DNA of 64,000 nt from Clostridia bacterium (GCA_017440465.1 JAFSHF010000022.1:159-64158), one strand, 5' to 3'; numbered from the stretch's first letter, positions 1,758 through 26,088 are shown. Notes: a model not told the origin generated them from the letters alone. Numbers and translations: made by a program.

Positions 1758-2390
1758 ATGAACCTTAAAAAAAGAGATTGTGGGGTCAAAATAAAGTTGA
1801 AGCCTTTAGGTGCATATTACTTAAGCGTGCATTTTGATTTTTATGGAAACGAAATCTCGTTTGAACCAAGTTCTGCAGTTGGTTTGCAATTCGGCGATTT
1901 TTTATGTGCATTATATACTTTGTATCGCGAAAACGGCGAAGGACATAGCGAATGGACACCACGAAAATATCATACGGAAAATGGTACCAATCACGTTATC
2001 GCTGTTTCTACAACTATTGATTGGGATAACGAAGGCGAAATCATGACCATTGAAATGACTAAACATTACGAAGGCGGGAAGATAAACGATCTCTTTTTCA
2101 GAATAACAACTGATTACGGTGAAACTTATACCGAGTTTTCTGTAAATGAAAAAGACTTTTGTTATGCAGTTGCAAAAGCCTGTACAGAAGTTTTAAAAGA
2201 ATACGGTTTTTATGGATATCGGTATTCAACCGAATATGATAGTTTTAATCTCAATCATTTAATATTCATAAAAGCATATGCATTAGATTGTTTAGAGGTA
2301 CGTGAATTTAAGAATACAACAAATAAACATACAAGTACCGGAAAAACGAATTTTAATAAAGAAATTGAATTACTCCTTTTCGATATGTAA
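1758..2390 (+). CDS. Hypothetical protein
   Basis: GAGGTGA RBS, 210-aa ORF followed by terminator. Confidence 0.7.
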   Translation: MNLKKRDCGVKIKLKPLGAYYLSVHFDFYGNEISFEPSSAVGLQFGDFLCALYTLYRENGEGHSEWTPRKYHTENGTNHVIAVSTTIDWDNEGEIMTIEMTKHYEGGKINDLFFRITTDYGETYTEFSVNEKDFCYAVAKACTEVLKEYGFYGYRYSTEYDSFNLNHLIFIKAYALDCLEVREFKNTTNKHTSTGKTNFNKEIELLLFDM

Positions 2391-2398
2391 GACCGTTC

Positions 2399-2427
2399 AG
2401 CCGAGCAGTTCCCTGCTCGGCTTTTTT
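2399..2427 (+). terminator. Intrinsic terminator
   Basis: AGCCGAGCAG-TTCC-CTGCTCGGCT-TTTTT. Confidence 0.8.
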
Positions 2428-2569
2428 ATCCGTTGAAAAGCGGCGGCATCTGTGTTATAATCAGTTCAATACTTTTCACTTCACCCGCGGTTTATTTTCC
2501 CCACTAAACCAACGGTAGGTGTGATTTTTGCTTTCCATGCGCTATACTGTAAACGAAAGGAGAACCTGT

Positions 2570-3178
2570 ATGGATCAAATTAAAATCGGAAAATTTATTG
2601 CCGCTTGCAGAAAAGAGCAACAGTTCACCCAACTGCAGCTGGCAGACAAGCTGGGAATCACCGATAAGGCAGTATCCAAATGGGAGCGGGGCATCGCCAT
2701 GCCCGATACGTCCATTATGCTGGACTTGTGTGAGATCCTGCAGATCAACGTCAATGAATTATTAAGTGGGGAGAAAATCACTATGGAAAACAAACATCAA
2801 AAAAATGAAGAGCTGATGCTCGATCTGGCGAAGGAGATCGCCCAAAAGAACAAAACCATCTGGACGACCATGTGGGTCATTCTGGCGGTAAGTATATTGG
2901 GGTTGCTCGGAGGCGCCGCCGCCGTATATTTCTTTGTACCGGAAGGGGTCTGGCAGGTGGTATCCGTTATCGGAATCTGCATCCTCTTTTTAGTGCCCTG
3001 TTTTTACGCATTAAAGCTGGAGGTCAGCGTGGGTGCCTATAAATGCAAAAACTGCGGGCACGAATTTGTACCCACCTATACGCAGGCATTGAACGCGATG
3101 CACACCGGCACCACCCGCCACCTGAAATGCCCCGAATGCAGCAAGCGCACCTGGTGCAAAAAAGTTTGGAAGAAATGA
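2570..3178 (+). CDS. XRE-family HTH regulator with two TM helices and C-terminal zinc ribbon
   Basis: IGKFIAACRKEQQFTQLQLADKLGITDKAVSKWERG HTH; hydrophobic segments; CKNC...CPEC; AAGGAG RBS. Confidence 0.85.
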   Translation: MDQIKIGKFIAACRKEQQFTQLQLADKLGITDKAVSKWERGIAMPDTSIMLDLCEILQINVNELLSGEKITMENKHQKNEELMLDLAKEIAQKNKTIWTTMWVILAVSILGLLGGAAAVYFFVPEGVWQVVSVIGICILFLVPCFYALKLEVSVGAYKCKNCGHEFVPTYTQALNAMHTGTTRHLKCPECSKRTWCKKVWKK

Positions 3179-3179
3179 C

Positions 3180-3215
3180 AAAAGCCGAGCAGAGTGAAAA
3201 CTCTGCTCGGCTTTT
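3180..3215. terminator. Bidirectional intrinsic terminator
   Basis: AAAAGCCGAGCAGAGT-GAAA-ACTCTGCTCGGCTTTT between convergent genes. Confidence 0.8.
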
Positions 3216-3306
3216 GTTATGCTATGTGGTCTAAACCATTTGTAAACTGCTCAAAGTCAAAATTGAAATCGATCTTCACCTCGGGTTATCTGCAAAGCGA
3301 TGAATA

Positions 3307-3684
3307 TCATGATATTTTTTCTTGTATTTCCAATATGACTTCCTCAGCAGTAATTTCAATACCTACGCCATCAAAGATTATTGAAATCACGTTCGAGACC
3401 TTAAAGTCAACCTCATATAACCATCTTACAACAACATCTAAATTTATATTGAATTGTTGTAATCCGTTGATATGAAAATGAAACAAGGTTTCGTCCTCAT
3501 AAGATTTTACTGTCACTTGAGCACTTTTTCCGTCACAGGAAATATATTCGAGACTCCAATCATGCAATCGATCCTTAGCATTGACCTCGCCAATGATTTC
3601 AGTGATATCAGTAATTTTTGTAATTTGGGTTTTGTGTTCTTTTTTATCACTGTCATTGAAAATCAGATATTCTTGAGTCCTCAT
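3307..3684 (-). CDS. Hypothetical protein
   Basis: 125-aa ORF, AAGGAG RBS inside the upstream gene end, last of a three-gene run. Confidence 0.65.
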   Translation of the reverse strand: MRTQEYLIFNDSDKKEHKTQITKITDITEIIGEVNAKDRLHDWSLEYISCDGKSAQVTVKSYEDETLFHFHINGLQQFNINLDVVVRWLYEVDFKVSNVISIIFDGVGIEITAEEVILEIQEKIS

Positions 3685-3687
3685 GTT

Positions 3688-3888
3688 CTATGCTCCTTTT
3701 TCGCTTTGTTCCGTTACTTCGCCGGTCAAAATATGACTTTTCAATGTGATAATTTTGCCGTCGCGACCAAAGACCCAAACGTTGACGGCAGGTTGTTCGT
3801 ACCATACATCCGTTTCTTTTTCGCCGTAATTTTCCAAATAATATTCGCGCAGGTTCTTTGCGAACCGTTCTTTATCAAAAATACTCAT
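3688..3888 (-). CDS. Small hypothetical protein (MSIFDKERF...)
   Basis: AGGAG RBS before ATG 3888; operon-like spacing. Confidence 0.65.
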   Translation of the reverse strand: MSIFDKERFAKNLREYYLENYGEKETDVWYEQPAVNVWVFGRDGKIITLKSHILTGEVTEQSEKGA

Positions 3889-3898
3889 TTCATCACTC

Positions 3899-4132
3899 CT
3901 ATCTGAATAATGATCTTGCAAACAAGAAAGCAAGAAATCCCCACCCCAAAAGGCAGTCGATCGACTCCCAATCAGCACCGCTGAAAATAAAATATATCAG
4001 CATATAGGCGACAATTACGATAACAACCCAACCGCAGCCAAAGTCGGGGCCGCACCCGCCACCGGATCCGCCGCTGCCGCCCGAACCACCGCTTGTGCTG
4101 TTGAAAGCGTGAAAATCATTCATATCAGGCAT
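3899..4132 (-). CDS. Small membrane protein with Gly/Ser-rich N-terminal linker
   Basis: SGGSGGSGGSGGG then two hydrophobic segments; AAGGGG RBS. Confidence 0.65.
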   Translation of the reverse strand: MPDMNDFHAFNSTSGGSGGSGGSGGGCGPDFGCGWVVIVIVAYMLIYFIFSGADWESIDCLLGWGFLAFLFARSLFR

Positions 4133-4157
4133 AATGCAACCCCTTTCTTCTTCATTG

Positions 4158-4198
4158 TCTGAATTTTAACACAGTTGCAGTCCGATAAAACGGACTTA
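4158..4198 (-). promoter_or_regulatory. Operator-like GTCC-N8-GGAC box plus extended -10 (copy 1)
   Basis: Minus strand TAAGTCCGTTTTATCGGAC-N8-TG-T-TAAAAT; 35/41 identical to 11263-11303. Confidence 0.65.
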
Positions 4199-4214
4199 TG
4201 TGCCCCAAAAACAG

Positions 4215-4250
4215 AAAAACCTCGATAAAAAAGTTTTTATCGAGGTTTTT
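4215..4250 (-). terminator. Intrinsic terminator after nicotinamidase-like gene
   Basis: AAAAACCTCGATAAAAA/TTTTTATCGAGGTTTTT inverted repeat. Confidence 0.75.
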
Positions 4251-4252
4251 GA

Positions 4253-4753
4253 TTATACCACGTCCACCTGACACATTTGCATGGTTTTTAAAGCAGCTTG
4301 GTGGCTCTCGGGGGTGACACCGGCACAGCAAGCGGAATCCACCTTCACCTGCGCGTCGGGGAATTGCGCTTTGATGATGAGCGCGTTGGAAACCACGCAG
4401 ATATCGGTGCAAAGACCGATCAACTCCACGCTTTCAAGCATTTCCTCATCCCAATGGGGCCACCCGAAATTGGGCTTGTCAATAATTTTTGCGCCCTCGA
4501 CGTAAAGACCGTCGGCAATCTCCCAACCTTTTGTGCCCTTGATGCAATGCGGAACAGGAAGATGTTTGCCCTCTGTGGTATCGAGATAATTCTCAAAATG
4601 GGTATCTCTTGTAAAAATAATCTCGTCGCCGTTTTGGGTGTATTCCTGAATCTTTGCCTTGACCTTGGGGACGATGGCAACCGCCTCCTTGGTGCCGAGT
4701 ACCATATCGATAAAATCGTTTTGCATATCGACGACGATCAATGTCTTTTTCAT
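4253..4753 (-). CDS. Nicotinamidase/isochorismatase-family cysteine hydrolase
   Basis: VDMQNDF, TRDTH, PHC, GLCTDICV motifs; GGAGG RBS; own TGGTATAAT promoter at 4787-4795. Confidence 0.88.
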   Translation of the reverse strand: MKKTLIVVDMQNDFIDMVLGTKEAVAIVPKVKAKIQEYTQNGDEIIFTRDTHFENYLDTTEGKHLPVPHCIKGTKGWEIADGLYVEGAKIIDKPNFGWPHWDEEMLESVELIGLCTDICVVSNALIIKAQFPDAQVKVDSACCAGVTPESHQAALKTMQMCQVDVV

Positions 4754-4884
4754 CATCAGACCTCCAATGTGCGTTTGGTTGGATTTATTATACCATACAT
4801 CGATAAAATTTTCTACCGCTATATTAACAAAAAATCGCGTATAGATTTTAATCATCTTTTGGCTGAAAGCGGAGAATTCTTTAT

Positions 4885-4933
4885 AAAAAAGCAAAAAATC
4901 AGCACCGTAAAGGTCATCCTTTCGGTACTGATT
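4885..4933 (-). terminator. Intrinsic terminator lying inside the reading frame of the small basic ORF
   Basis: Minus strand AATCAGTACCG-AAAGG-ATGA-CCTTT-A-CGGTGCTGATT then TTTTGCTTTTTT. Confidence 0.75.
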
Positions 4934-5071
4934 CTTTTTTCTGTTATATCGTTTGCGATTTGGGCGTTTGCGTGTGATGGGGTTCAGGCTGCCCCACGTT
5001 TTTCGTCTTCTGCTGTCTGCTTTTCTCTTTTCTTTCTTTGATGGTTTTTCGTATGCAATAAACCGTTCCAT
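4886..5071 (-). CDS. Small Lys/Arg-rich protein, putative ArfA/BrfA-like ribosome rescue factor; no stop codon before the terminator
   Basis: MERFIAYEKPSKKEKRKADSRRRKTWGSLNPITRKRPNRKRYNRKK; AAAGGA RBS; immediately downstream of rtcB; end coordinate is the terminator, not a stop. Confidence 0.6.
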
Positions 5072-5114
5072 TATCATTTTTCCTTTCTTCGCGCCGATCA
5101 GCATAGGCGGCGGA

Positions 5115-6323
5115 TCACTCCGCCGCCTTAAAGTTATAAATGGGTTTGATATGGGCAATGATTTCGGCGGTAGGCTCGATATTGGCAACGATCTCATCCA
5201 TATTCTTATATGCCATGGGGGACTCATCCTGCGTATTGGTATTGACACAGGTGGTGTAGATCCCCTCCATCTGCTTTTCATACTCTTCCATCGTCAGCCG
5301 CTCAAAAGCGGCAGAACGGGACATCAAACGGCCGGCACCGTGGGGCGCGGAAAAGTTCCAATCCGCGTTTCCCTTGCCGATGCAGATCAAACTTCCGTCC
5401 CGCATATTGATGGGGATCAACAGTTTCTCCCCTGCCTTTGCGGAAACAGAGCCCTTACGGAGAATCCTCTCCTCTACATCGATATAATTATGGATCGTCT
5501 GGAAGGTTTCGATTGCCTCAAGGCCGGTCTTTTGGAGCAAGATCTCCGCCATCTTCTCGCGGTTCCGCTTGGCAAATTGCTGGCAGATATTGATATCGTG
5601 CAGGTAATCCTCCATAAACTTGCCATAGAGGAAGCAAAGTTCGCGGGGCATGGTGGGCTCTTTGGCGTCCCACTCCCTTGCCATCTGCTTTAAGGTGGAT
5701 TGGATCTCGCTTCTGCGGCCCTGCTCCTTATAGGTACGGATGATCTCATCCCGCTTTTTGAAATACTCCTCCTTGCCGAGATTCAAGTCGACGGCGATGC
5801 CTTGATAAATTTCCGCCACTTGAGTACCGAGGTTTCGGCTGCCGGAATGGATGATCAAATACTTATTTCCATCCTCATCGGCATCGATCTCGATGAAATG
5901 GTTTCCGCCGCCCAAGGTACCAAGGCTTCTCTCCAGACGCTTGGAATGCTTCAGGCTTCGGTAGCAACGAAGCTTTGTCAGATCAAAGCGCTCTATTCTC
6001 CCCTCCCAGACATTTCTGCCGCAGGGAATGGTGTGTGCCGCGGCATCGAATGCCGCAAGATCGATATCGGTCTTACCCAGATTTACGGTATACATCCCGC
6101 ACCCGATATCCACACCGACCATATTGGGAACCACCTTATCCACAATGGTCATGGTGGTACCGATGGTACAGCCCTTTCCTGCGTGCACATCGGGCATAAT
6201 GCGGATCTTTGAATTGGCAAAAGCCTCCTCATTGCATACGGTTTCGATTTGCTCGTATGCGGTGGGCTCTAATGTATCTGTATAACATATGGCAGTATTA
6301 AACTTGCCTATAATCTCAATCAT
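5115..6323 (-). CDS. rtcB: RtcB family RNA ligase (3'-phosphate/2',3'-cyclic phosphate to 5'-OH)
   Basis: MPDVHAG, VGVDIGCGM, GTLGGGNHFIE, IHSGSR, SAPHGAGR, DESPMAYK motifs. Confidence 0.95.
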   Translation of the reverse strand: MIEIIGKFNTAICYTDTLEPTAYEQIETVCNEEAFANSKIRIMPDVHAGKGCTIGTTMTIVDKVVPNMVGVDIGCGMYTVNLGKTDIDLAAFDAAAHTIPCGRNVWEGRIERFDLTKLRCYRSLKHSKRLERSLGTLGGGNHFIEIDADEDGNKYLIIHSGSRNLGTQVAEIYQGIAVDLNLGKEEYFKKRDEIIRTYKEQGRRSEIQSTLKQMAREWDAKEPTMPRELCFLYGKFMEDYLHDINICQQFAKRNREKMAEILLQKTGLEAIETFQTIHNYIDVEERILRKGSVSAKAGEKLLIPINMRDGSLICIGKGNADWNFSAPHGAGRLMSRSAAFERLTMEEYEKQMEGIYTTCVNTNTQDESPMAYKNMDEIVANIEPTAEIIAHIKPIYNFKAAE

Positions 6324-6376: not shown

Positions 6377-7876
6377 TTATGCCGCTATTTTCTCGTACCG
6401 TTCGCCGCAAAGCACCTCCAGCATGATCTGGTAAGGGGTTGCAGCGGATACATTGCCTTCTGCAATCATCGAGAACAAGCGCGGCGTGCAGCCGGAAACC
6501 AGCGCAACACCTTGTTCATTTTTAGAAACAGGCTGTTGGCGGTTGCGGCTGGCAACATTCCAGAACACCACCTCAGGAAGCTTATAACCGGCCGCCACGA
6601 ATTTTTTCTTCGCATTATTGAAGTTGGTAGTACCCGCATTTTTTACACACGCATTAAACTCCATATCGGAGATAATGATGAGTTTATCGGGCAGTTCTGA
6701 CTGTGGCAGGTTGTTGTTAACTGCCGCATTCAAAACAAGGTCGAAAACAGCTTCTATATTCGTATCTGCGATCTCATTGAAAGAGCAGATATATTGCAGC
6801 TTTTCTGCAAAAGTATCGCCTTTGATTTCAATGAGTTCCGGCTTACTTGAAAACTCAATAAAATGGTTTTTAAACACACCGGTATTATGTTCTGCAAAGT
6901 AAATGCCAAGAGATAATGCAACTGCAGCAGGAAGAGGCTTTGCATCGCAATACATCGAACCGGAAGTGTCGATAACGGCGAGTGCATTGGCCTCACTGCC
7001 AAAAGCGGGAAGTGCTTCCCAAGTAGCATTGAGGCTCTTTTTTTCTTCCGCGGTTATTTGCTTCATAAATGAATGGTGACCGTTATACCAATAAGGAGTC
7101 AAGTAGGGTTCCACAAGCTCGTAGGGGGCGAGCGTAGAGGCGTTTAACTTTGCCTCACCGGAGGACACGCTATTCAAAAAGGTGTTGTACCGTTCCGCGT
7201 CGTTGCGCGCAAAGGCGTTGCGGTATTTGAACATCGCCTTGGAGGGTTGCTTTTCGTAGTCAAAGGTATAATCCTTCTCCCGAAGGTTATTCTCGATGAT
7301 CCGAATCTGCCCACGCAGGCGGGTAAGGGTTTGGCGGTAGGTCTTATCGTCCATCCCGAGATATCGTGCGATCTTCTTTGCGGTCTTGACCGTTTCGGCA
7401 TTGGATGCATTGACCGAAGGCAGCCATTTTCCGAGCAAAGACACCTCTTCCCCGTTGTTCATCGCAGAAATATCGCGATGCAACTGTTCGCGGATCAGGG
7501 AAAGCATCTCCTTCTCAACCGGAGTGCCAAACAGGACCAGCAGGTCATCGTAGCGACCGTATTCTGCGATGTAGGCAAGGTTTTTGCGCACAGTATTGGG
7601 CTCATTTTGCGCCAACCATTTCAGAATGACGCGAAACACCTTCCGCTCGCCAAGGCCGCCCCGAATATCGCGGGCGAAGAACAGAAGCTTCATGGCAATA
7701 TCCTTATCTTCTGTATAAGCACGCATAAAACGGGCGATGATCTCATCGTCGCTTTGGCGGCGAAGGGCGCCGACGGTGGCAAACAGATCCAGGCAATCCG
7801 AGAGAGTCGATTGAAGGGTCGCCGCACCGTTTTCGGTGAAGGTTTTATTGGATTCTTGTTTTAAGTATTGCAGCAT
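6377..7876 (-). CDS. DUF2828-family TROVE/Ro60-like protein with C-terminal vWA domain
   Basis: TENGA, LDLF, RDIRGGLGER, YGRYDDL, KWLPS, MIDAS DTSGSM, IISDMEF, VFWNV, LVSG motifs; AGGAG RBS before ATG 7876. Confidence 0.88.
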   Translation of the reverse strand: MLQYLKQESNKTFTENGAATLQSTLSDCLDLFATVGALRRQSDDEIIARFMRAYTEDKDIAMKLLFFARDIRGGLGERKVFRVILKWLAQNEPNTVRKNLAYIAEYGRYDDLLVLFGTPVEKEMLSLIREQLHRDISAMNNGEEVSLLGKWLPSVNASNAETVKTAKKIARYLGMDDKTYRQTLTRLRGQIRIIENNLREKDYTFDYEKQPSKAMFKYRNAFARNDAERYNTFLNSVSSGEAKLNASTLAPYELVEPYLTPYWYNGHHSFMKQITAEEKKSLNATWEALPAFGSEANALAVIDTSGSMYCDAKPLPAAVALSLGIYFAEHNTGVFKNHFIEFSSKPELIEIKGDTFAEKLQYICSFNEIADTNIEAVFDLVLNAAVNNNLPQSELPDKLIIISDMEFNACVKNAGTTNFNNAKKKFVAAGYKLPEVVFWNVASRNRQQPVSKNEQGVALVSGCTPRLFSMIAEGNVSAATPYQIMLEVLCGERYEKIAA

Positions 7877-7913
7877 AAAGCTCACTCCTTTTCAGATAAA
7901 ATGTTAAAATAAT

Positions 7914-7993
7914 CAAGGCACCATGATACAACGCGCAAAGGCGCATCAATATTGAAATTGGAAACATCATATACGATTGCTGTTCGTGCCTTT
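7914..7993 (-). ncRNA. Array unit 8 (distal)
   Basis: AAAGGCACGAACAGCAA...GTGCCTTG. Confidence 0.7.
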
Positions 7994-8070
7994 TGGTTTG
8001 ACCCGAGTGGGAGTCGAACCCACCGTCACGGGGATTTCGAGTCCCCACTCGGCCGCTGAGCTACGGGTCA
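7994..8070 (-). tRNA. tRNA-like element, anticodon CGA (Ser-like but short variable loop), ends AACCA
   Basis: TGACCCG TA GCTC-AGCGGCC-GAGT GGGGA-CTCGAAA-TCCCC GTGAC GGTGGG-TTCGACT-CCCACT CGGGTCA AACCA. Confidence 0.6.
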
Positions 8071-8076
8071 TATAAA

Positions 8077-8156
8077 CAAGGTGCTCGGCAGATTCCCACC
8101 TGCCATAGTTTTATAGGATTACGCCTCGCGGAAGAAACAATGCTGCAAGCACCTTT
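8077..8156 (-). ncRNA. Array unit 7
   Basis: AAAGGTGCTTGCAGCAT...GAGCACCTTG; internal GGCAGG-TGGGAA-TCTGCC hairpin. Confidence 0.65.
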
Positions 8157-8164
8157 GTCAGCAA

Positions 8165-8270
8165 CAAGACACCATTTAAAAACATGATAATCGTTTGATA
8201 ACGACCACTTCTGTCCTCATGTCAAAGATAATAATCGATACTTTATAAAAATCTTGCTGTTGGTGTCTTT
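8165..8270 (-). ncRNA. Array unit 6
   Basis: AAAGACACCAACAGCAA...TGGTGTCTTG (9-bp closing stem). Confidence 0.7.
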
Positions 8271-8368
8271 GGGGATAAGGAAGAGTATCGTTGAATTTTA
8301 AGGTGCCCCTTAAGCAATGAGCTTCGATAAGTTTTCATTGTAACGATCCTCTTTTTTATGACCCCTTC

Positions 8369-8448
8369 TTCGCTGCATGCGGGGAATCGAACCCCGCGCA
8401 ACTCCTGCCCCGAAAGCAAGCGCCTATCCTTAGGCCATATGCAGCGAA
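8369..8448 (-). tRNA. tRNA-like element, anticodon TCG (Arg-like), extended acceptor stem, no encoded CCA
   Basis: TTCGCTGCAT ATG GCCT-AAGGAT-AGGC G CTTGC-TTTCGGG-GCAGG AGTTGC GCGGGG-TTCGATT-CCCCGC ATGCAGCGAA. Confidence 0.6.
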
Positions 8449-8473
8449 TGGATGAAGGAATCGTTGAAGAAAA

Positions 8474-8583
8474 CAAGACGCGTATGATTTCGCGCAAGGA
8501 TTCGAACCTTGCTAACTCTTGCTTATAAGGCAAGCGCTCCCCACGGAGCCAGCGGTCTCCCATGTGTTGCTGTTGGCGTCTTT
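8474..8583 (-). ncRNA. Array unit 5: motif stem enclosing a tRNA-like D/anticodon(TAT)/T module
   Basis: AAAGACGCCAACAGCAA...GCTC-CGTGGG-GAGC G CTTGC-CTTATAA-GCAAG AGTTA GCAAGG-TTCGAAT-CCTTGC...GCGTCTTG. Confidence 0.75.
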
Positions 8584-8653
8584 ATAAAACACTTGCCGTT
8601 TACCTTAATAGGCTCCAATTGCCGTTAGGAACAGCGAAATGTTTTTTAAGGAA

Positions 8654-8734
8654 CAAGGTACATCTTTAATGATAAGCTTCGCAGTTGCCTCCTAAGCTAT
8701 TCTAAAAAAAGAAAACATTGCTGAATGTACCTTT
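8654..8734 (-). ncRNA. Array unit 4
   Basis: AAAGGTACATTCAGCAA...ATGTACCTTG. Confidence 0.7.
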
Positions 8735-8735
8735 A

Positions 8736-8802
8736 CAAGATGCGTTACCGCGGTCAAAACTTCCTTGACAATAAATACGAAAAAATTGCTGCTTGCATCT
8801 TT
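8736..8802 (-). ncRNA. Array unit 3
   Basis: AAAGATGCAAGCAGCAA...GCATCTTG. Confidence 0.7.
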
Positions 8803-8807
8803 GGATT

Positions 8808-8894
8808 CAAGACGCATTTCCAGAGCCTTACCTCCGAGTGTGATCAATCATAGCCTCGGCATTCTTAGTATGGAGCGTTGCTGTTTGCGTCTTT
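8808..8894 (-). ncRNA. Array unit 2
   Basis: AAAGACGCAAACAGCAA...TGCGTCTTG. Confidence 0.7.
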
Positions 8895-8895
8895 C

Positions 8896-8980
8896 CAAGG
8901 CGCATTTCCCGGATGGATCAGATCCGTTTAGCTTCTAAGTGTTTCAGACTCATGCTTGGAGCATTGCTGTTTGCGCCTTT
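8896..8980 (-). ncRNA. Array unit 1 (promoter-proximal)
   Basis: AAAGGCGCAAACAGCAA...TGCGCCTTG; two internal 5-bp/7-nt-loop hairpins. Confidence 0.7.
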
Positions 8981-8989
8981 TGTGTCTAC

Positions 8990-9018
8990 ATTGTACCTCC
9001 AAAATTTTCCTTTATCAC
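8990..9018 (-). promoter_or_regulatory. Putative sigma-A promoter of the ncRNA array/DUF2828 transcript
   Basis: GTGATA-17 nt-TACAAT; predicted start site a few nt before unit 1. Confidence 0.6.
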
Positions 9019-9020
9019 GG

Positions 9021-9059
9021 AAAAAAAGCTGCGAACTCATAAAAGTTCACAGCTTTTTT
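9021..9059 (-). terminator. Intrinsic terminator of the WYL operon
   Basis: AAAAAAGCTGTGAACT-TTTATG-AGTTCGCAGCTTTTTTT overlapping the WYL stop codon. Confidence 0.75.
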
Positions 9060-9945
9060 GACTTTTCAGTTTGGCAATGATCAAATTTTTAAAGTGCTCC
9101 GATTCCAAAACCTCGACCGTCGGACCGAAGGACAAAACGCGGATCACCATCTCCGGCTCATCGTCCCGATGAAATTTGATATGCAACAGATAATGGTCGC
9201 CCACCTTTTCCGCCCGCTTTTCAAAATGGGCAAAATGAAGCATACACCGCTCCAGTGTGTTTCTCTCCTCGCTCACTCTCAAAGTGATCGTATCCAGATG
9301 AACTTCGGGCTCGGCGGATGGAATCACCGTATCGCCGTTATAAATTTTACATTTGGTGATACGGGCGATATTAACGGTACGGATAAAATGGCATCCGGTT
9401 GTGACAAGGCGGAATTTATCGTCCTTCTCGGAATATTCCAGCCGCTGAGGGACGCACCTTGTATACACTGCATTGCCTTTGCGGTTGACCATTTCAAGCT
9501 TGAGGTTTTTCTTATGCTTCAGAGCAAATAGAATGGTACGGAAGTGCTTTATATACTTCTCATCCTCGAAGGGATCACCATCGCTATACCGATCATAGAC
9601 ATAATAATCCGACGGAGTAAACAGCGGCTCCACATCCTCAAGCCCGCTCAGTTCCACCCCAAACAACTTGATACGCGGATCGAGAGAGATCGCCTTCAGC
9701 CATTGCTTTTGAATGAGGGTCAGCGGCATGGTGGGCTTATGCTGCAGAGGAGTTGTCATATCTGCCCGGATCAACTGCCATTTTTCACTTTTCAGAGCAG
9801 GCAACACCGTCAGCATACTCTCACCAAAGGCGTGGTCGCAGACGATTTGGTTGAACTCTCTTTCGTCGGTTTTTCCGTCGAGCACAGCGGTGATGATCTT
9901 GGCGACCGCGTTATAGTAGGCAGAATAAATTTCATTAAAAATCAT
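9037..9945 (-). CDS. WYL domain-containing protein
   Basis: ALKHKKNLKLEM...PQRLEYSEKDDKFRL...RTVNIARI WYL core, C-terminal WCX-like RVLSFGPTVEVLE; ATGA overlap with upstream gene. Confidence 0.85.
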   Translation of the reverse strand: MIFNEIYSAYYNAVAKIITAVLDGKTDEREFNQIVCDHAFGESMLTVLPALKSEKWQLIRADMTTPLQHKPTMPLTLIQKQWLKAISLDPRIKLFGVELSGLEDVEPLFTPSDYYVYDRYSDGDPFEDEKYIKHFRTILFALKHKKNLKLEMVNRKGNAVYTRCVPQRLEYSEKDDKFRLVTTGCHFIRTVNIARITKCKIYNGDTVIPSAEPEVHLDTITLRVSEERNTLERCMLHFAHFEKRAEKVGDHYLLHIKFHRDDEPEMVIRVLSFGPTVEVLESEHFKNLIIAKLKSQKSCELL

Positions 9946-11195
9946 GCTTCCACCTCCTCAAGCCCATACATACGATACATTGCTCGGATGTCCTTTTTGA
10001 ATTGCGTTTCGAAAGCCTTGTTAGAAAAATGAAGCTCGGTAATTCGGCAGATAAAGGTGCGGATCCAAGGAATGATCTCGCTGGTATCATAAATATCTGC
10101 CGAAAACCGATAGGTATGCTCATCAAGTTTTTCGACCGTTCCGCACCGCTTCTCCCGCTCCAGACGGCGAATGATATACTCCTCATTTTCCGCCACCCGA
10201 ACGGTAAAATCAATATGTTCCAAGCATTCTTCTTCATGCCGCTTGGTCTTGACGGTAACACCCCACATATGCGCTTGCTTTTGATCCAATTCAGCGCGCA
10301 GCTCATCAAAACGGGGAGTTGGTTCTTCGATCTTAACATCGGAGAGATAATCGATCCGAAATGATTTGATCACGTTGAAATCCGGCTGATAGGCAAGTAA
10401 ATGCTGCCTACCGTTTTGCACGCTGATGAAGATACGCAAAGGTATAATTCTGTTCTGTCGCGGCTCATCGGCGCGGCGGCTCATATTGGAAACGGTGACA
10501 ATGCATTTTTTGTGCATCGCCTTAAAGAGCATTGCCAGAACATTGCTGTCCATGGCAGAAGTAATGTAGTGATGCTTAAAACTGAAACTATCGGTCTTTT
10601 CTTCCAGCTTATCCAGCAGAAAAGAGCCGACCACACCGCAGGGAGCCACCTCGGAATAGAAATTGAGAATATCGGTGATCTCCGGCAACGGAATATTTTC
10701 CGCCCGATGATACAGCATTTTTCGCCCCTTTTTTTGACCGAGAATGATCTCCTGCTCCATATATTCCTTCAGCTTCTTGCGCACCGTAGACTCATCAAAC
10801 ACCATCGGGCTTGCAAAGCCATCTAAATATTCATCGATCTTCTCAAGGATCTCGGGCAAGGATAAAACCACCTCGGGAGAGTGCAGAATGTCAAACAGAA
10901 TAAAATGCAGCGTAATATCCCCATCGGTAAAGCTCTTCGCTTTCAATGCTTTATAAAAAGGATTGTGTTGCGAAACGCGGCTATCGATCGAAATGAAAAC
11001 ATTTTTGCCTTCAGGAGTGCGGACAAAGCTCATATGATCCCCCAGCCAGCTTTCCATCCTGCGACGCTCGTCATCATAGGAACGGGCGCTTTTTTTATTG
11101 TACTCTTCTCTGCTTTTGAATCCGTAGACATAGAATTCACGCATATAGCTTCGTATCTTTTCAAAGTTTTTGATCAGTTCGCTATAAGACGACAT
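9942..11195 (-). CDS. WYL domain-containing transcriptional regulator
   Basis: N-terminal HTH-like regions, IIPLRIFISVQNGRQHLLAY...KSFRIDYL WYL core, IIPWIRTF WCX-like; GGAGG RBS before ATG 11195. Confidence 0.85.
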   Translation of the reverse strand: MSSYSELIKNFEKIRSYMREFYVYGFKSREEYNKKSARSYDDERRRMESWLGDHMSFVRTPEGKNVFISIDSRVSQHNPFYKALKAKSFTDGDITLHFILFDILHSPEVVLSLPEILEKIDEYLDGFASPMVFDESTVRKKLKEYMEQEIILGQKKGRKMLYHRAENIPLPEITDILNFYSEVAPCGVVGSFLLDKLEEKTDSFSFKHHYITSAMDSNVLAMLFKAMHKKCIVTVSNMSRRADEPRQNRIIPLRIFISVQNGRQHLLAYQPDFNVIKSFRIDYLSDVKIEEPTPRFDELRAELDQKQAHMWGVTVKTKRHEEECLEHIDFTVRVAENEEYIIRRLEREKRCGTVEKLDEHTYRFSADIYDTSEIIPWIRTFICRITELHFSNKAFETQFKKDIRAMYRMYGLEEVEA

Positions 11196-11215
11196 AGTTT
11201 TCACCTCCGAATATC

Positions 11216-11342: not shown

Positions 11343-11547
11343 TAAAAATATAATAATGATTGAAAAAAGAACAAAAACAAGGTATGCTTAAGATACGAAA
11401 TACCATCAAAAAAAGAAATGAACGGTAGATATCAAGTCGGATCGGGTCGTATAGTGGCCGTCACGCATGATACTCCGTTCATCATTGTCATTATATGTTT
11501 TTTAATTCAAAATGTCAACTGTTACATTCAACACAGGAGGAAAGAAC

Positions 11548-12447
11548 ATGGAGTTTTGCCAAACAAATAAAGAAGTTCAGGAATATATTCGCCCGATCCT
11601 TCAAAAAAAGAAAGATTGCAAATTAAAGAAAATCTTTTCAAATGAATACCACAAACTGAAAGAAGGGGGTATTTGGGAGGTTGAGGATACCCTTTTTCTT
11701 TTGTTTGAAGATGATACCTGCATGGAGATCGGCGGTTTTATCTTTGGACAAGTCTATTTTGATGACGATGCACTTTTGCCGGATGATGAAGAGGACTGCT
11801 TTGATTTCTTCAATACCACACAGGGACGATATTGTGAAGCGACCGCTCATAAAGATGAAACGATCACCTTCCAAATGAACTACGGTGCCGTCAAAGGCAT
11901 TTCGGGCTTGGAAACAAACGGGGTTTTGGATCTGCTGATCATCGAAACAGAGGGCGGAGAGATACGAATTCATCCAAAATCCTCCCGTTATTGTACAATG
12001 GAAGTATGGTCGCCGACCGCAATAATAACGTCGGAGGAGGAAACGGCGGAATATGATCTTGTCTTTTCAGATTTAGATGAAGATGTACACATTTTCTTCT
12101 TCGTCAACTCGGGAGAATTGCCTCCTTTTGAATTGGATGCCACAATGTCTTTTGTAACAGATCTTTATGATTATAAATGGCGCCTTTTCCTTTCAAAAGA
12201 TGAATTTTTCGAGTTTTCCGAACAAATTAAAGATTTAGAATTAGAACTCACTGATCGGGTAGAATTCAAATTTTGGGCTATGATTATGGACGATATTAAA
12301 AAGCACGGCTTTGAAGACTTTGATTATTCAGAGCAGGGCGAGCTTACATTAACCGTCCAAAGAAAAGGTAACCAATTTTTAGTAAATTTCTGCGACGGAA
12401 CCCAGACTCCCCCTATGAACATTGAGTTTCTTTCCAAATGGGATTAA
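11548..12447 (+). CDS. Hypothetical acidic protein
   Basis: AGGAGG RBS before ATG 11548; 299 aa. Confidence 0.7.
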   Translation: MEFCQTNKEVQEYIRPILQKKKDCKLKKIFSNEYHKLKEGGIWEVEDTLFLLFEDDTCMEIGGFIFGQVYFDDDALLPDDEEDCFDFFNTTQGRYCEATAHKDETITFQMNYGAVKGISGLETNGVLDLLIIETEGGEIRIHPKSSRYCTMEVWSPTAIITSEEETAEYDLVFSDLDEDVHIFFFVNSGELPPFELDATMSFVTDLYDYKWRLFLSKDEFFEFSEQIKDLELELTDRVEFKFWAMIMDDIKKHGFEDFDYSEQGELTLTVQRKGNQFLVNFCDGTQTPPMNIEFLSKWD

Positions 12448-24792: not shown

Positions 24793-26088
24793 TTAGTTTT
24801 TCCCAATTTTCACAGTATAAACCTGTTTTGTATTTTCATCGGGCGCAAATTCCTTCGCCGCGCCGTATCCTTCGGCCCAAAGCAGAGTCCCTTGCTCATC
24901 GCAAAGCACCCAAAGTTGCTCGCGGGCGGTGCGGGGAACGCGGTCGTTTTTCAACCGTTTTTGCAGGCGGGAGGTCCCGCCGCCTGCCTTGGCAGGCAGA
25001 AAACGGTCGCCGTCGCGCTTATGGCGAAAGATCAGATTGCCCTTTATTTTATCACAGTCTAATTGAAAATGTGTAAACGCACTGTTAATTTCTTCTGAAA
25101 GTACCAAAAACTCCCAGTCGCCCCAGCGGGCGATTTGGTTTGGAATCGCGGCGATCTCCGGTGCTTCTTGGGGCACCGTAAATACGCATTTTCCATATTC
25201 GATGCGAAAATACCGCCCCTGCGGCAGTTGCAACTGCGCCGACGGCGGATTTTTGCGGATCAGAGCGGCGATCTGCTCAAAATGCAGGCGGGATAACAAA
25301 CTCCCGTTCCTCCGATCCAGCACCCGCTTTAAAACAGCATCGGGCAACGCCGCCAACGCTTCGGCGGCATCGGTCTGAATACTTTCCGCCCATTGGTTTA
25401 AAGCCTGATCCTCCGCTTCCAGGCAACGCATTGCCGCCGCCAGCCCTTCGGAGAACTTCCCCTCCTGCCGTTGATTTAGACGCGGCAGAATTTCGTATCG
25501 CAAAAAATTGCGCAGGTAGGAGGTATCCTCATTGGTCTCATCCCAGACATAGGGCAACCCTTGCTCTGCGCAATAGGCAAGGATCTCCTCTTTCTCCCAT
25601 TCCAAAAGCGGGCGGAGATAGCCGCCGCGGCGGGCTTTAATGCCCGAAAGGCCGCTGCTGCCGCTGCCGCGATAGAGGTTGATGAAAAAGGTCTCCTCCC
25701 GATCTCGGCGATGGTGGGCGGTGGCGCAAAACTGCATCTGCCCATCGGCAAAGGAATCCAAAAAGCCATAGCGCAACGCGCGGGCGGCTTCTTCCGGACT
25801 CATCCCCTGCTCCTTTGCCAAGGCGGGGGCATCCCCCTCAAAAATATGCAGAGGGATCTCCCAATCCTCGCAAAGGGCGCGGCAAAATTCCAGATCCCTG
25901 CGGGAGGCTTCCCCGCGGATACCGTGCTCAATATGCGCCGCCTGCAGGGAAAAGGCGCGGTTCGGTAATTCTTTCAGCAGATGCAAAAGCGCCACCGAAT
26001 CGCTGCCGCCGCTCAAAGCGACGGTCAGCACGCTCCCTTGGGGCAGAGAAAACTCCTCCATTGCTTTTTGAAAGCGTGCTTTCATCAT
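24793..26088 (-). CDS. tilS: tRNA(Ile)-lysidine synthetase
   Basis: SGGSDS, TAHH, RPLL, RNFLR. Confidence 0.93.
   Translation of the reverse strand: MMKARFQKAMEEFSLPQGSVLTVALSGGSDSVALLHLLKELPNRAFSLQAAHIEHGIRGEASRRDLEFCRALCEDWEIPLHIFEGDAPALAKEQGMSPEEAARALRYGFLDSFADGQMQFCATAHHRRDREETFFINLYRGSGSSGLSGIKARRGGYLRPLLEWEKEEILAYCAEQGLPYVWDETNEDTSYLRNFLRYEILPRLNQRQEGKFSEGLAAAMRCLEAEDQALNQWAESIQTDAAEALAALPDAVLKRVLDRRNGSLLSRLHFEQIAALIRKNPPSAQLQLPQGRYFRIEYGKCVFTVPQEAPEIAAIPNQIARWGDWEFLVLSEEINSAFTHFQLDCDKIKGNLIFRHKRDGDRFLPAKAGGGTSRLQKRLKNDRVPRTAREQLWVLCDEQGTLLWAEGYGAAKEFAPDENTKQVYTVKIGKN

Follow-up and report, generated by a model that had tools for sequence, protein, structure and literature searches.

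Handle-closed tRNA-like RNAs beside DUF2828 genes of Clostridia and phages point to a cousin of the Ro/Y-RNA system

Introduction

The Ro60 protein and its Y RNAs form a long-studied pair whose function is unclear. Among the bacterial members, YrlA is a tRNA mimic bound by Ro (Rsr), encoded for example in the rsr-yrlBA-rtcBA operon of Salmonella (PMC4201824; bioRxiv 10.1101/312249; Rfam RF02553). In the cited part of the survey of bacterial Ro60 and Y RNAs, cases were traced only via TROVE-annotated proteins, the search being confined to TROVE-annotated genomes (PMC4201824). Here, we describe a 108-nucleotide (nt) unit on the minus strand of a 64,000-nt stretch of DNA from a Clostridia bacterium (GCA_017440465.1 JAFSHF010000022.1:159-64158), called the window hereafter. 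This unit, the fifth of eight in an array located next to the gene of a DUF2828/DUF7788 protein, combines a terminal stem and a conserved CAGCAA loop, which together we call the handle, with a tRNA-like body. We conclude that unit 5 is most likely a tRNA mimic that cannot be charged and that partners, in the manner of a Y RNA, with a Ro60-like protein encoded in an RNA-repair operon.

Comparison with described Ro-bound RNAs and tRNA mimics

As far as the cited descriptions of YrlA extend, it has much in common with the handle units. Both have paired ends with a conserved motif (protein-binding in YrlA), a tRNA mimic at the other end and no free CCA, and both are encoded, often in several copies, on the same strand beside RtcB and the gene of a Ro60-fold protein, the fold being predicted in our case. 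The architecture differs. YrlA is permuted, with a T arm, a closed acceptor stem-loop and a D arm, whereas the order in the handle unit is D, anticodon and T (PMC4201824; bioRxiv 10.1101/312249). YrlA is joined to its Ro-binding stem via the anticodon-stem position and therefore has no anticodon loop; the handle joins the tRNA body via the acceptor position, and the anticodon loop is therefore kept. The motif is N-ACAGCAA in the handle units and GNCGAAN0-1G near the 5' end in YrlA (PMC4201824), the proteins are DUF2828/DUF7788 and TROVE, respectively, and the regulators are a pair of WYL proteins here and RtcR there.

The Rfam YrlA model (RF02553, with 69 bits or more taken as membership) had no match at E<=10 in positions 7000-10000 of the window, nor any in 11 related loci or 4 phage loci. 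Its best match in the source genome reached 29.4 bits, at another place and spanning two real tRNAs. YrlA membership would also call for a TROVE-domain Ro60 ortholog within 4 kilobases (kb) on the same strand, and there is none beside unit 5. Of the 82 first-pass chimeras described below, 4 contain the looser motif GNCGAA within their first 35 nt, and unit 5 is not one of the four. Membership of YrlA or Y_RNA was thus rejected: the models fail, and unlike YrlA the handle unit has an unpermuted arm order, an anticodon loop and another motif. The preliminary description of this locus had tied the unit to YrlA; the tie stands as an analogy, with a Ro-like neighbour and a tRNA mimic, and falls as a matter of membership. 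The handle unit is an analogue of YrlA.

Canonical Y RNAs and the Yrl1 and Yrl2 RNAs that go with phiRo60 in phage phiLo also have a terminal stem flanking an internal loop with a short motif on one strand, lie just upstream of a Ro60-type gene and occur in both phages and cells, according to the cited portion of the source (PMC12135203). Their motif is of the CGAA type there (PMC12135203), in contrast with ACAGCAA, and the Rfam Y_RNA model does not match the handle units. Unlike the canonical Y RNAs so described, handle units form arrays of up to eight and, in phages, stand inside tRNA gene clusters. The Y-RNA-type features of the handle RNAs are their terminal 5'/3' stem with a conserved motif and their location beside the gene of a Ro60-like protein.

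The b7a-tRNA is likewise a tRNA-like RNA with normal arm order encoded beside RtcB; in the cited passages it strongly resembles authentic tRNA and is linked to a Band-7 protein (bioRxiv 10.1101/312249), whereas the acceptor end is replaced in the handle unit. None of the ten neighbouring proteins scanned in the window has a Band-7 domain. No Rfam 15 family but tRNA covers any handle unit scanned. We found no published description of handle RNAs in the full-text literature, the coverage of which is incomplete, so that a prior mention is possible.

A tRNA-like body closed by a handle

The preliminary description had placed a unit at 8474-8583, with D, anticodon and T arms and a motif stem in place of the acceptor end. 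These coordinates and arms proved correct in every detail on the minus strand (Table 1). In its minimum free energy fold, with an energy of -38.3 kcal/mol, unit 5 adopts precisely the handle stem plus the three hairpins; the z-score is -2.06, with an equally good value in 5 of 200 shuffles. The Rfam tRNA model (RF00005) matches the unit at 8551-8495, corresponding to model positions 8-63 of 71 with the acceptor stem outside the match. The score is 32.1 bits for a gathering score of 29, with E-values of 0.0086 in a scan of the 64-kb window and 0.0004 in a 3-kb scan. ARAGORN makes no tRNA call for unit 5.

The acceptor stem is reduced to CGC/GCG, three base pairs (bp) rather than seven, whose strands run on into the handle, and there is neither a discriminator nor a CCA end. 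With three acceptor pairs only and no free 3' end, unit 5 is not chargeable as drawn, in line with the earlier proposal of a non-chargeable mimic.

The nucleotides engaged in tertiary contacts in tRNAs are U8, A14, G18G19, A21, T54-Psi55-C56 and A58. Unit 5 has U8, the GG of the D loop and the T loop TTCGAAT, with C at position 14 and G at position 21. Without A14 and A21, it is a less secure candidate for the L-shape than most of its relatives. Unit 5 shares with ordinary tRNAs the three arms, the T loop, U8, U33 and A37, and it differs from them in its acceptor end, in positions 14 and 21 and in its low RF00005 score. It belongs to a long-spacer subtype and is farther from tRNA than most of the 80 chimeras presented below.

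Its same-genus ortholog (L014:5589-5704) has an identical anticodon arm and differs in the spacer and the D loop. With the covariance model R1 described below, this ortholog, which is not among the seeds, scores 65.7 bits; unit 5 scores 69.1 bits, but is itself one of the 26 seed sequences. An open reading frame of 106 amino acids at 8243-8563 overlaps unit 5. The stop-free stretch over chimeras has a median near 76 codons, with a few long values coming from neighbouring genes; as this test says little on coding, we relied on RNA covariation instead.

The handle RNA follows the DUF2828 gene in genomes

The pattern AAG-N7-CAGCAA occurs seven times in the window, always on the minus strand and within 7977-8979, for an expected count of 0.53, and seven copies were reached in 0 of 100 shuffles. 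With a CAGCAT variant, there are eight handle units in total, each closed by a stem of 7-10 bp formed by its own ends. The array is located between the genes of two WYL regulators and the DUF2828/DUF7788 gene, which is followed by RtcB.

Relatives of the DUF2828 protein were found in 11 of 201 related genomes, in several families and with 60-77% identity, and there are at least 268 in one-per-species genomes, mostly those of gut and rumen Clostridia. We fetched 80 loci. The handle motif is present upstream on the gene strand in 77 of them, with 225 forward matches (a hand sum of the per-locus counts) versus 6 reverse ones, and 217 units are closed by a stem. Two of the three exceptions have handle units with variant motifs. 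The copy number ranges from 1 to 8 units per locus.

As CAGCA and AAG were the search pattern, the invariance of both is by construction. Beyond this pattern, the 217 closed units conserve an A before AAG (0.88), a C at stem position 7 (0.91), an A before CAGCA (0.82), the final A of CAGCAA (0.97), a G after CTT (0.98) and an A-rich 3' strand of the loop. The handle is an end-to-end stem of 7-8 bp with an internal loop (5' N-ACAGCAA, 3' A-rich) and a G after the stem, and it encloses a variable module; most units have no tRNA body.

Chimeras of handle and tRNA recur and co-vary

A strict T-arm search yielded hairpins in 37 of the 217 closed units, with a density of 0.65 per kb upstream of the gene versus 0.08 per kb elsewhere. 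We built the covariance model R1 from 26 aligned T-arm units, including unit 5. In this seed alignment, 20 of the 25 pairs change on both sides and 94% of the cells pair, a percentage that is inflated, unlike the double changes, by the choice of seeds with rules requiring paired arms. The covariation score is 0.558, versus 0.190 for shuffled and 0.08-0.13 for slid partners. Pair counts are similar on 150 model-aligned rows, but these rows were aligned to the model itself and 29 of them are plain tRNAs. That the handle and all arms co-vary in the relatives speaks for selection on this particular shape.

R1 gave 277 matches, which come from 92 sources. Of the top 150, 82 were first accepted as chimeras, 81 of them located within 3 kb upstream on the gene strand, and dropping 2 real tRNAs of the L039 array left 80 units with both handle and tRNA body, in 56 of 90 non-duplicate sources. 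The handle has strict AAG...CTT and CAGC in 72 of these units and is slightly variant in 8. Independently of R1, the bodies of 12 chimeras, spread over 11 other loci, are recognized by the Rfam tRNA model with 30-57 bits. We rejected the presence or absence of R1 matches in 151 whole genomes as a specificity test, because matches of 50-62 bits include ordinary tRNAs; four such matches that were inspected have neither a handle nor DUF2828 nearby. Only the matches of 65 bits or more (G148, G127, G000 and G013) come from genomes with DUF2828.

The bodies of the 80 chimeras retain tRNA features to varying degrees: U8 in 72, A14 in 49, the D-loop GG in 55 and G15:C48 in 32. Of the 65 that have a 7-nt anticodon loop, 51 carry U33 and 63 have a purine at position 37. 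In contrast, contiguous acceptor pairs number 0-5 in 74 chimeras and 6-7 in 6. The anticodon loops of the 65 chimeras include CAU (16), GAA (10), UAU (7), AAA (5) and UCG (5), counts that come from related genomes and are not independent, and those of phage chimeras are GAU. The UAU anticodon highlighted in the preliminary description is present; because homologous chimeras bear many different anticodon loops, this triplet carries little weight.

Handle RNAs beside DUF2828 genes of phages

At least 526 viral contigs contain DUF2828 relatives, with about 40-44% identity. We analysed 80 viral loci, 73 of which are non-identical; the handle motif is found upstream on the gene strand in 55 of these 73, with 145 forward versus 2 reverse matches. 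RtcB is close to the DUF2828 gene in 4 of the 80 viral loci and WYL in 2. Because the linkage persists in viral loci, which mostly lack both, the handle RNA tracks DUF2828 rather than RtcB or WYL. The viral handle units are usually interleaved with phage tRNA genes and scattered up to about 3 kb from the DUF2828 gene; ARAGORN makes 401 tRNA calls, in 60 of the 80 loci.

A tblastn search detected the DUF2828 protein in 696 cultured-phage records, and all five phage homologs scanned have DUF2828 and DUF7788, with TROVE absent. Variant handles stand beside the DUF2828 gene in all four cultured phages analysed, Bacillus FADO, Listeria LMSP-25, Mycobacterium Faith1 and E. coli pinkbiff, each of which has three or more same-strand units no farther than about 3 kb from the gene. 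Their stem sequences are different, but they retain N-ACAGCAA, the A-rich strand and the 3' G; the relaxed scan used for these loci also gave 1-2 opposite-strand matches per locus, without these shared features. Stems that are wholly different between phyla and yet paired represent covariation at long range. Interleaving with tRNA arrays was observed for the handle units of FADO, LMSP-25 and pinkbiff; those of Faith1 and pinkbiff lie downstream of the DUF2828 gene.

Other RNAs were also detected in these phage loci. In FADO (L193, NC_073050.1 79586-91043), ARAGORN and Rfam indicate at least 15 tRNA genes upstream of DUF2828, none of which is annotated in the record for this stretch. The tRNA cluster preceding the DUF2828 gene of LMSP-25 contains two further RNAs. 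A ROOL-like RNA (L194:3470-4021) reaches 88.5 bits and stays under its gathering score of 99.1, and a drum RNA (L194:983-1081) exceeds its own of 43 with 50.2 bits. Downstream, the DUF2828 gene of this phage is followed by genes for an HD phosphohydrolase, RtcB and an RNA ligase.

The DUF2828/DUF7788 protein has a predicted Ro60 fold

We modelled the DUF2828 protein with AlphaFold2 using an alignment of 45 sequences (predicted local distance difference test 80.3; predicted template modelling score 0.66). In a Foldseek search of the PDB, the 12 best matches are all Ro60, Rsr or phage TROVE structures, over 519-580 columns and with E-values from 1e-7 to 5e-6, and vWA/MIDAS domains rank after them. 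The model thus predicts a Ro60 fold. D306, S308, S310, T375 and D407 are invariant in the alignment, a pattern that we take to fit a MIDAS motif. A TROVE search of the source genome, which is 65% complete, gave no match. Phage annotators have named homologs 'Ro-like RNA binding protein' or 'RNA-binding protein'. One such phage protein, LeBron gp53, is moderately toxic on overexpression, according to the cited excerpt (PMC13148394). The preliminary description had the unit tethered to DUF2828; the predicted fold and the way in which the handle follows this protein family into phages speak for such a tie, and binding itself is what we infer from them.

A putative Ro60-like particle with a tRNA-shaped end

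We give a probability of roughly 60% to the following reading: the handle binds the Ro60-like protein, the tRNA-shaped module shows a tRNA surface to tRNA-handling factors, and both belong to a WYL-controlled RNA-repair system. Transcription of the array would start from the promoter-like site at 9018-8990 and might take in the DUF2828 and RtcB genes; the transcript would then be cut into units. By analogy with the 5'/3' stem and loop motif that serve Ro60 on Y RNAs, the handle may be the binding site of the DUF2828/DUF7788 protein. The other end would present a tRNA surface, including the anticodon loop, to RtcB, modification enzymes or nucleases, and the particle would thereby be tied to the surveillance or repair of tRNA damage.

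In a gut metatranscriptome that contains 5% of the query words, the one sequencing run found, contigs cover 8001-8087 and 8292-8458, with one 18-nt handle match; these fragments all come from relatives and do not cover unit 5, and they speak neither for nor against its transcription. A number of points weigh against this reading. Unit 5 has C14 and G21 instead of A14 and A21. A full tRNA body is not obligatory, since 34 of the 90 sources have no full chimera among the 150 best R1 matches, and none of the four cultured-phage loci has one, a single FADO unit having a T-arm-like hairpin only. R1 was seeded by rules requiring paired arms, as mentioned above, and ordinary tRNAs, flanks included, reach 50-62 bits with it as well. 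As for the protein, the Ro60-type structural matches are modest (TM-score 0.39-0.53, root-mean-square deviation 9-13 A), PDB sequences searched with a profile of 11 homologs gave no match at E<=10, and TROVE is absent at E<=10 from a Pfam scan of the DUF2828 protein.

Organization of the array and its operon

The features of the array and the neighbouring genes are listed in Table 1. Two other tRNA-like elements are found between the handle units. That at 8355-8467 has a closing stem of 10 bp (TTCGCTGCAT/ATGCAGCGAA) plus 5 bp more and no CAGCAA (inverted repeat I6); it is therefore a tRNA mimic closed by different means in the same array. The other, at 7998-8070, ends 5 nt 5' of handle unit 8. 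The tRNA-Sec model gives it 33.5 bits for a gathering score of 47, and a 91-nt tRNA-Ser(CGA) is present elsewhere in the genome, on contig C12. The adjacency of a tRNA-like gene and the last unit is repeated, with other anticodons, in L014 (CAA) and L015 (AAA); similarity points to it in L043 and L053 as well. The inter-unit stretches 8272-8370 and 8585-8652 of the minus strand fold into long hairpins, inverted repeats I2 and I4, in which the handle motif is missing.

Table 1. Features of unit 5, of the array and of the neighbouring genes. Positions are those of the window.
Feature	Position	Strand	Details
Unit 5, handle-closed tRNA-like unit	8582-8475	minus	108 nt; sequence anatomy, fold, array scan
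Unit 5, handle 5' strand AAGACGC	8582-8576	minus	pairs with 8481-8475; helix co-varies in relatives
Unit 5, CAGCAA, 5' strand of internal loop	8572-8567	minus	conserved motif
Unit 5, spacer between CAGCAA and acceptor remnant		minus	12 nt
Unit 5, acceptor-stem remnant, 5' strand CGC	8554-8552	minus	pairs with GCG 8493-8491
Unit 5, UG between acceptor remnant and D arm		minus	
Unit 5, D arm GCTC-CGTGGG-GAGC	8549-8536	minus	without A14 and A21; GG present
Unit 5, anticodon arm CTTGC-CTTATAA-GCAAG	8534-8518	minus	anticodon TAT 8527-8525; RNA loop CUUAUAA
Unit 5, variable loop between anticodon and T arms		minus	5 nt
Unit 5, T arm GCAAGG-TTCGAAT-CCTTGC	8512-8494	minus	6 bp, canonical T loop
Unit 5, acceptor-stem remnant, 3' strand GCG	8493-8491	minus	pairs with CGC 8554-8552
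Unit 5, handle 3' strand GCGTCTT	8481-8475	minus	followed by conserved G at 8474
Handle unit 1	8897-8979	minus	without tRNA body; motif and stem scan
Handle unit 2	8809-8893	minus	motif and stem scan
Handle unit 3	8737-8801	minus	motif and stem scan
Handle unit 4	8655-8733	minus	motif and stem scan
Handle unit 6	8166-8269	minus	motif and stem scan
Handle unit 7	8078-8155	minus	variant CAGCAT; stem scan
Handle unit 8	7915-7992	minus	closest to gene, ends about 30 nt before DUF2828 start codon; motif and stem scan
Second tRNA-like element	8355-8467	minus	core 8371-8445; ARAGORN tRNA-Arg(UCG); Rfam tRNA 34.9 bits; R1 31.0 bits
Third tRNA-like element	7998-8070	minus	73 nt; anticodon CGA (Ser); without long variable arm
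Promoter-like sigma-70 site GTGATA-17-TACAAT	9018-8990	minus	just upstream of unit 1, after WYL hairpin
Hairpin and T run, likely terminator of WYL genes	9022-9059	minus	inverted repeat I3
DUF2828 + DUF7788 protein	6377-7885	minus	502 amino acids; Pfam domains; predicted Ro60-like fold
RtcB RNA ligase	5115-6323	minus	in 56/80 related loci
WYL/WCX-domain protein, second of pair	9037-9945	minus	in 60/80 related loci
WYL-domain protein, first of pair	9942-11204	minus	in 59/80 related loci
Isochorismatase-domain protein, after RtcB	4253-5281	minus	in 2/80 related loci

The hexamers of the promoter-like site are nearly conserved in seven aligned loci, with 1-2 variant positions each, and this site probably drives the array and the genes behind it. 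The stretch 8985-9059, which comprises the terminator hairpin, the promoter and the start of unit 1, has 78-88% identity in six related loci, far above the array, and is a likely operator for the WYL pair. The isochorismatase protein is probably outside the module, because of its presence in 2 of the 80 related loci only.

Variations on this organization were observed in related loci. The order is WYL-WYL-array-RtcB-DUF2828, with RtcB between the array and the gene, in L045, L049, L050, L068, L078 and L061; the L061 contig begins inside rtcB, and its array is not captured. In L039, from the metagenome-assembled genome of an Anaerovoracaceae, about 40 tRNA genes stand in a row (2118-5282) directly upstream of the handle units and the DUF2828 gene, near which neither WYL nor RtcB was found. 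In L030, a DUF3268 RNA (11496-11619; 71.3 bits) lies a few kb downstream of DUF2828-RtcB, adjoining tRNA genes.

Alternative explanations

The most interesting variant of the Y-RNA-like role, a decoy or sensor function of the displayed anticodon arms, is in our view rather doubtful. These arms would be bait that captures toxins cutting tRNAs (anticodon nucleases) or signals their presence. RtcB would reseal the cleaved units, or the WYL regulators would sense the fragments and switch the operon on. In phages, the handle RNAs would shield the phage's own tRNA set. Such a function would fit the retention of a 7-nt anticodon loop in most chimeras, unlike in YrlA, the diverse but skewed set of these loops, the presence of RtcB and two WYL regulators in the operon and the interleaving of phage units with tRNA arrays. 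For YrlA itself, competitive inhibition of an anticodon nuclease is raised as a possibility in the cited passage of Hughes et al. 2020 (PMC7790460); in another passage of that source, however, fragments of Salmonella YrlA were not seen under tRNA-cutting conditions (PMC7790460). Cleavage and sensing are hypothetical here, and the loop counts, as said above, are not independent. Moreover, a decoy role cannot explain the whole family, because many handle units have no tRNA body.

The other explanations are less likely than the Y-RNA-like role and its decoy variant. The tRNA-like bodies might serve as RNase P or RNase Z signals by which the array transcript is cut into units, in the way that tRNAs act as punctuation in some polycistronic transcripts. 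The two additional tRNA-like elements, the kept adjacency of one of them to the last unit (in L014, L043 and L053) and the alternation of phage units with real tRNA genes all suit this idea, which we nevertheless consider improbable. Bodies with few acceptor pairs are poor RNase P substrates. The handle surrounds that of unit 5, which has three acceptor pairs, and as few as 6 of the 80 chimeras have at least 6 contiguous pairs. A cut at the body would also destroy the conserved handle helix, and covariation maintains the anticodon and D arms too.

It is very improbable that the array acts in cis, as a structured 5' untranslated region regulating the DUF2828-rtcB mRNA via a protein or uncharged tRNA-binding factors, without giving rise to stable trans-acting RNAs. 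Its location between a conserved promoter and the DUF2828 start codon, shortly before which the last unit ends, is what a leader would have, but the variable copy number, the loci with RtcB between the array and DUF2828, the units downstream of the gene in Faith1 and pinkbiff and the scattering of units over up to about 3 kb in viral contigs all argue otherwise. Finally, a relic tRNA-Ile between repeats or a working tRNA-Ile(UAU) is hardly credible: unit 5 does pass the Rfam tRNA gathering score and L039 has its long tRNA array just upstream, but there is no 7-bp acceptor stem, 3' end or ARAGORN call, covariation extends over the handle and every arm, the same architecture returns in 56 of 90 sources, and the window encodes TilS, as had been reported (25483-26028; 169.5 bits for a cut-off of 93.6).

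Significance

The handle RNA family points to an undescribed cousin of the Ro/Y-RNA system, that is, a parallel system with a protein family devoid of detectable TROVE sequence similarity and a different RNA motif. Its carriers include phages of E. coli K-12, B. subtilis and M. smegmatis, which makes the handle RNA directly testable. The chimeric unit is the informative member of the family: it achieves tRNA mimicry by a topology opposite to that of YrlA and retains the anticodon loop. Because this loop is kept, the mimic may itself be a nuclease or ligase substrate, and it can be used to ask why a tRNA-shaped RNA is part of Ro-type particles, an old question.

More tentatively, DUF2828 and the ACAGCAA-handle RNAs might constitute a second widespread Ro/Y-RNA-like particle, whose handle-closed tRNA mimics would show a collection of anticodon arms, either as decoys for toxins that cut tRNAs or as sensors of them; we regard this broader proposal as possible but unlikely. 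Its carriers would be gut Clostridia and many large phages: Felixounavirus, the P100-like Listeria phage (Pecentumvirus) examined here, cluster L mycobacteriophages and Bacillus phages. If true, this particle would be an RNA-level arm of the conflict between phages and their hosts over tRNAs.

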